Below, in pieces: positions 1 through 251 of a DNA stretch of 251 nt. This DNA is from Escherichia coli (lineage in GTDB: Bacteria; Pseudomonadota; Gammaproteobacteria; Enterobacterales; Enterobacteriaceae), in NCBI RefSeq assembly GCF_003334315.1, contig NZ_QOWR01000140.1. One strand, written 5' to 3'. The position numbers were made by a program, and so were the translations under genes. Position 1 is the stretch's first letter; every line of letters starts with the position of its first letter. The notes beneath the pieces are model-generated. The model was given only the letters and a program-made list of their open reading frames with translations. It was not told the origin of the DNA and did not search any database.

Positions 1-251
1 CCGATGACTTTGTCATGCAGCTCCACCGATTTTGAGAACGACAGCGACTTCCGTCCCAGCCGTGCCAGGTGCTGCCTCAGATTCAGGTTATGCCGCTCAA
101 TTCGCTGCGTATATCGCTTGCTGATTACGTGCAGCTTTCCCTTCAGGCGGGATTCATACAGCGGCCAGCCATCCGTCATCCATATCACCACGTCAAAGGG
201 TGACAGCAGGCTCATAAGACGCCCCAGCGTCGCCATAGTGCGTTCACCGAA
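1..251 (-). CDS. insB: IS1 family transposase, InsB portion (the C-terminal part of the InsAB' frameshift fusion transposase); internal fragment, partial at both ends
   Basis: Seen in sequence: reverse-complement translation in the frame whose first codon is + positions 251-249 gives 83 codons with no stop: [83 protein letters not shown], plus a partial Gly codon at + positions 2-1. Established knowledge (recalled, not searched): this matches IS1 InsB residues ~75-157 of 167. The start codon lies ~222 nt beyond position 251 and the stop ~31 nt beyond position 1, both outside the window. Confidence 0.93.
1..251 (-). mobile_element. IS1 insertion sequence, internal segment only (no terminal inverted repeats, no insA, no frameshift site in window)
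   Basis: The nucleotide sequence corresponds, as far as I can recall base by base, to the reverse complement of the insB region of canonical 768-bp IS1. Isoform (IS1A/B/D/F/R, Shigella iso-IS1 and others) cannot be assigned from this fragment without a reference alignment. Confidence 0.92.

Follow-up and report, generated by a model that had tools for sequence, protein, structure and literature searches.

In the insertion sequence IS1, insA and insB' are transcribed from a weak promoter that overlaps IRL and is repressed by InsA; the active product is an InsA-B' fusion, InsAB', that arises by -1 slippage at an A6C motif in <2% of translations (PMC12903888, PMC12428005). InsAB' binds the element ends and, with a catalytic site formed by a C-terminal DDE motif, catalyzes mainly replicative transposition accompanied by 8- or 9-bp target duplications (PMC12903888, PMC12428005). 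In strain BW25113, >99.9% of IS1 transposition is attributed to one type of element, that of IS1A and IS1E (PMC12428005).

Those reference copies of IS1 that are identical within the window (by which we mean the whole 251-base stretch of DNA analyzed here; G+C content, 56%) carry the inverted repeats, insA, and the A6C motif of this described system. In the reference copies, the terminal inverted repeats, GGTGATGCTGCCAACTTACTGAT and GGTAATGACTCCAACTTATTGAT, served to set the ends of the 768-bp element; within it, insA begins at nt 56 and specifies 91 residues, the slippery motif AAAAAAC (A6C) occupies nt 307-313, and the -1 fusion InsAB' is 232 residues long. According to the literature, and for sequence lying beyond the window, the weak promoter at the left end would transcribe insA and insB' (PMC12903888, PMC12428005). 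Most ribosomes would then produce the 91-residue repressor InsA, and a small fraction would slip by -1 at AAAAAAC to produce InsAB'. The N-terminal zinc finger and helix-turn-helix of InsAB', which would be common to InsAB' and InsA, are expected to bind the ~23-bp terminal inverted repeats, and the DDE domain would cleave the ends and join them to the target, which would thereby be duplicated over 9 bp or, sometimes, 8 bp.

We regard it as practically certain that the window is IS1, and it comes from the interior of the transposase gene. Alignment to the reference copies makes it the reverse complement of part of the element, with the following extent.

Positions 1 to 251, minus strand: internal segment of IS1 insB', corresponding to IS1 nt 472-722 and InsAB' residues 140-222 (by translation, megablast, and Pfam).
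Positions 2 to 1, minus strand: first two bases of the Gly223 codon, by InsAB' coordinates.

Outside this span lie the inverted repeats, insA, the -1 frameshift site (upstream of the window), the first catalytic Asp, the stop codon of insB' (which the reference copies have 31 nt beyond window base 1), and any target duplication.

A megablast search of complete E. coli RefSeq genomes returned 100% identity over positions 1-251 (E = 8e-128), which is the outcome foreseen in the preliminary description, where a BLASTN check was expected to give near-100% identity to IS1 over 251 bp. Matches to the window are present in 9,374 records of E. coli and in 4,956 of 5,426 complete genomes, on chromosomes and plasmids alike, with a median of 10 matching places per genome, and the matched features are annotated as IS1-like element IS1A or IS1B family transposase. 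At least 5,000 records in the plasmid collection also match; the matches listed all have ≥99% identity, and the plasmids listed belong to Escherichia, Klebsiella, Salmonella, Enterobacter, Citrobacter, Shigella, Providencia, Serratia, and other genera. Eighteen records of the phage collection match the window, those of P1 and SfIV among them. In two annotated copies, the window falls wholly within the transposase CDS, on the opposite strand (for example, locus positions 1501-1751 within a CDS at 1470-2167), and the CDS in both is 698 nt long, composed of two joined pieces, and marked with the note "programmed frameshift." Together with the identity at 251 of 251 positions, this places the window inside an IS1 transposase gene, as had been proposed from the letters alone. 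Scanned against Rfam with E values of up to 1, the window matched no family, and a pattern scan of the window for sigma-70-like promoters and intrinsic terminators found none.

IS1 is known to hop into clones propagated in E. coli, and the window agrees exactly with the allele of IS1A and IS1E, the mobile copies of K-12, so that one could ask if the element is native at all or if it reached the clone or assembly by way of an E. coli cloning host or as contamination. We consider such an origin very improbable: there is no positive evidence for either source, and chromosomes and plasmids of enterobacteria carry this very sequence natively by the thousands, which makes them the simpler one.

Frame 1 of the minus strand, read from window position 251 down to position 3, consists of 83 codons without a stop. 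Its translation covers 83 of the 232 residues of InsAB', takes in the larger part of the C-terminal half of the DDE domain responsible for catalysis, and matches the Pfam family DDE_Tnp_IS1 (PF03400) from end to end (peptide residues 1-83 against model positions 39-121 of 131; E = 1.8e-45). The NCBIfam equivalog model transpos_IS1 (NF033558) matches the fragment, which is about a third of the protein, at profile positions 132-199 of 199 with 76 bits (E = 3.7e-21), a value below the curated whole-protein cutoff of 100 bits because only 83 of 232 residues are present. The full InsAB' of an element that is identical in the window scores 242.7 bits against the same model and also matches the IS1/IS1595 N-terminal zinc-binding domain, with residues 8-40 matching zinc-binding models. 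A search of PDB sequences with full InsAB' yielded no solved relative, the sole hit (E = 0.57) being one expected by chance. The intact 83-codon stretch of IS1 transposase that the preliminary description read from the minus strand is thus borne out; the name InsB that it gave to the protein fits the frame, which is that of insB', but not the product, since insB' is not known to yield a protein of its own and the product is the InsAB' fusion (PMC12903888, PMC12428005).

Openness of a reading frame is by itself weak evidence for coding, because 21% of mononucleotide shuffles of the window contain at least one fully open frame, and it is homology that decides. The pattern of substitution relative to IS1F, which is 90% identical, adds to this. 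The insB' frame has 26 changed codons, 18 synonymous and 8 nonsynonymous, and the other two frames of the sense strand have synonymous/nonsynonymous counts of 2/23 and 2/24. This comparison indicates that minus-strand frame 1 is a coding frame under purifying selection.

Frame 1 of the plus strand, which was absent from the preliminary description, is also open throughout the window (positions 1-249, 83 codons), and in the full element, it spans IS1 nt 725 to 432, a total of 98 codons; the remaining four frames have 3 to 8 stops each. That this frame, antisense to insB', is the protein-coding gene is a reading to which we give next to no credence. It lacks a stop in the window, and two or more open frames appear in only about 2% of the shuffles, but the frame has two stops in IS1F, an ISEc30-like relative (46% identical) has two to four stops in every antisense frame, no NCBIfam family matches it, and its codons have their third positions in register with those of insB'. 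Because the wobble positions coincide in this way, both the openness of the plus-strand frame and its synonymous/nonsynonymous count of 14/12 are accounted for by insB'. An antisense stop requires a sense Tyr codon after a codon ending in a pyrimidine, or a His or Gln codon after one ending in T, and all eight Tyr, His, and Gln codons of insB' in the window follow codons ending in a purine, which is why the plus-strand frame stays open. Reportedly, when Jakowec et al. analyzed the IS1 open reading frames by mutation in 1988, insA and insB proved to be the only ones required. Lacking both conservation (given the stops in IS1F and in the relative) and a family match, the plus-strand frame was rejected as a gene, and it looks like a shadow ORF. 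An idea to which we attach an equally negligible probability is that the 98-codon antisense frame might be expressed from IS1A/E-type elements, giving either a small protein peculiar to the lineage or an antisense translation product with a regulatory role.

Candidate catalytic residues were sought in a three-sequence alignment of the IS1 B' frame, the ISEc30-like transposase (46% identity), and a remnant from phage APSE-2 (37%), the relatives having been obtained by tblastn in phage records. The window peptide contains seven acidic residues, of which only D166 and E191 are invariant across this alignment and the others vary; the codons of these two are located as follows.

Positions 171 to 173, minus strand: GAT codon of Asp166 in the motif WMTDGW, the putative second Asp of the DDE triad.
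Positions 96 to 98, minus strand: GAG codon of Glu191 in the motif TQRIERHN, the putative Glu of the DDE triad.

E191 sits in TQ-IER-NL, the best-conserved block of the alignment. We infer that D166 is the second Asp and E191 the Glu of the catalytic triad; the first Asp is likely D109 (in AEMDEQW), which lies upstream of the window and is conserved in the ISEc30-like protein. A study by Ohta et al. from 2002 is said to be the source for the DDE residues of IS1, and our assignment leans on it as well as on the alignment. The spacing from D to E has been described as unusually short in IS1, and the separation of 24 residues between D166 and E191 agrees with this.

The ISEc30-like element, an IS1-family member in phage Rac-SA53 (KU052037.1), has the same layout as IS1, being 766 bp long with an insAB read by -1 frameshift and an annotated 8-bp duplication. 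The motifs around D109, D166, and E191 are conserved in it, although its amino acid identity over the window peptide is only 46% and megablast detects no nucleotide match between KU052037.1 and the window. The variable toxin-cassette region of the Hamiltonella phage APSE-2 contains, at positions 622-1155, an unannotated and degenerate IS1-family transposase remnant that adjoins the CdtB gene and is 37% identical to the window peptide; shorter related matches occur in APSE-1, -4, and -5.

Comparison with the six named IS1 copies of K-12 MG1655 narrows the type of element from which the window derives. The copies and the two informative bases are listed below.

K-12 IS1A and IS1E: no differences from the window.
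K-12 IS1B and IS1C: one difference (250/251 identical), at nt 704 (window position 19), changing Leu to Gln.
K-12 IS1D: one difference (250/251 identical), at nt 631 (window position 92), changing His to Tyr.
K-12 IS1F: 27 differences (224/251 identical), including a change of Trp to stop; annotated as pseudogene insB7.
Position 19, minus strand: isoform-informative base at IS1 nt 704, sense T (Leu) as in IS1A/E; IS1B/C have A (Gln).
Position 92, minus strand: isoform-informative base at IS1 nt 631, sense C (His) as in IS1A/E; IS1D has T (Tyr).

The window is the same as K-12 IS1A and IS1E (insB1 and insB6, the "consensus" transposition-competent type) at 251 of 251 positions, with the same frame and the same peptide, a likeness that holds for the window span, as the sites that tell IS1A/E from other near-identical isoforms, at nt 40-447, lie beyond it. 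The copies in the SK1144 chromosome and in plasmid pE2863-1 illustrate the point: they differ from IS1A at 6 and 7 positions, respectively, all within nt 40-447, and are identical in the window, which cannot separate the type of the pE2863-1 copy from IS1A/E. Similarly, the IS1 of plasmid R100 and plasmid copies named "IS1B family" by PGAP are 100% identical to the window, and PGAP applies both "IS1A" and "IS1B" family names to copies with an identical window, that of R100 included. The window therefore narrows the subtype to the IS1A/E-like state and excludes the K-12 IS1B/C, IS1D, and IS1F alleles, but it does not fix the subtype, because most diagnostic sites lie upstream at nt 40-447. The earlier expectation that a few isoform-specific differences would assign the subtype fails on the same count, elements named IS1A and IS1B being identical across the span.

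The K-12 copies also bear on the condition of the element. That the window was drawn from a truncated or defective IS1, be it a remnant, an isoform of poor mobility, or a copy damaged beyond the window, and not from an active element is unlikely in our estimation, though a good deal less so than a foreign origin. Defective or odd copies do exist, such as IS1F, a pseudogene with an in-frame stop, and the 767-bp SK1144 copy with its 1-base deletion at nt 40, and only IS1A and IS1E transpose appreciably in K-12 (PMC12428005); moreover, most of the reference copies examined have no target duplication, which suggests later rearrangement. Against this, the window shows no lesion in any of its 83 codons and does not differ from the IS1A/E allele of K-12, which is competent for transposition, and the changes seen within the span in K-12 (the stop in IS1F, L to Q in IS1B/C, and H to Y in IS1D) are absent from it.

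The stop in IS1F (locus coordinates 4473-5240) results from a change of TGG to TAG at IS1 nt 542, equivalent to window positions 181-183, and it fits the annotation of that copy as pseudogene insB7; the window does not have it. The SK1144 copy (positions 1455-2221) has lost one T from a T-run at IS1 nt 40, upstream of insA, and lies between truncated genes, namely, fragments of a helix-turn-helix regulator and a fimbrial protein, with no target duplication.

Settings of the other reference copies are varied. Direct repeats of 9 bp are kept in two of the eight reference copies, K-12 IS1D and IS1E, and no 9-bp target duplication was found in the flanks of IS1A, IS1B, IS1C, IS1F, or the SK1144 and pE2863-1 copies; the lack of a direct repeat suggests events that followed insertion, either deletions mediated by IS1 or recombination of one copy with another. 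Within the part of plasmid pE2863-1 that was examined (positions 1-3251), IS1 stands between aph(3')-Ia and aph(6)-Id/aph(3'')-Ib, and IS26 lies close by; the arrangement is a mosaic typical of resistance regions, with IS1 as one of the building blocks. Plasmid R100 (NC_002134.1) has two places that match the window, and the exact window sequence adjoins catA1 there; by analogy, a Tn9-like composite transposon, with two IS1 copies bracketing a gene such as cat, is a possibility for the present locus.

The window is, in sum, part of a mobile element that ranks among the commonest and best studied in E. coli and its relatives; it is already known and adds nothing new on IS1. On this, the preliminary description had judged correctly, calling the sequence nothing novel and a marker of mobile or accessory DNA, and the exact match is to a known and widespread IS1. 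Because the window is a piece of IS1, the locus is mobile or accessory DNA, and the practical use of the finding is as an annotation flag only, to the effect that IS1 is present and the DNA hence mobile or accessory. The presence of IS1 also makes the locus a likely site of assembly breaks, and it may mark the boundary of a composite transposon or of an IS1-mediated rearrangement.
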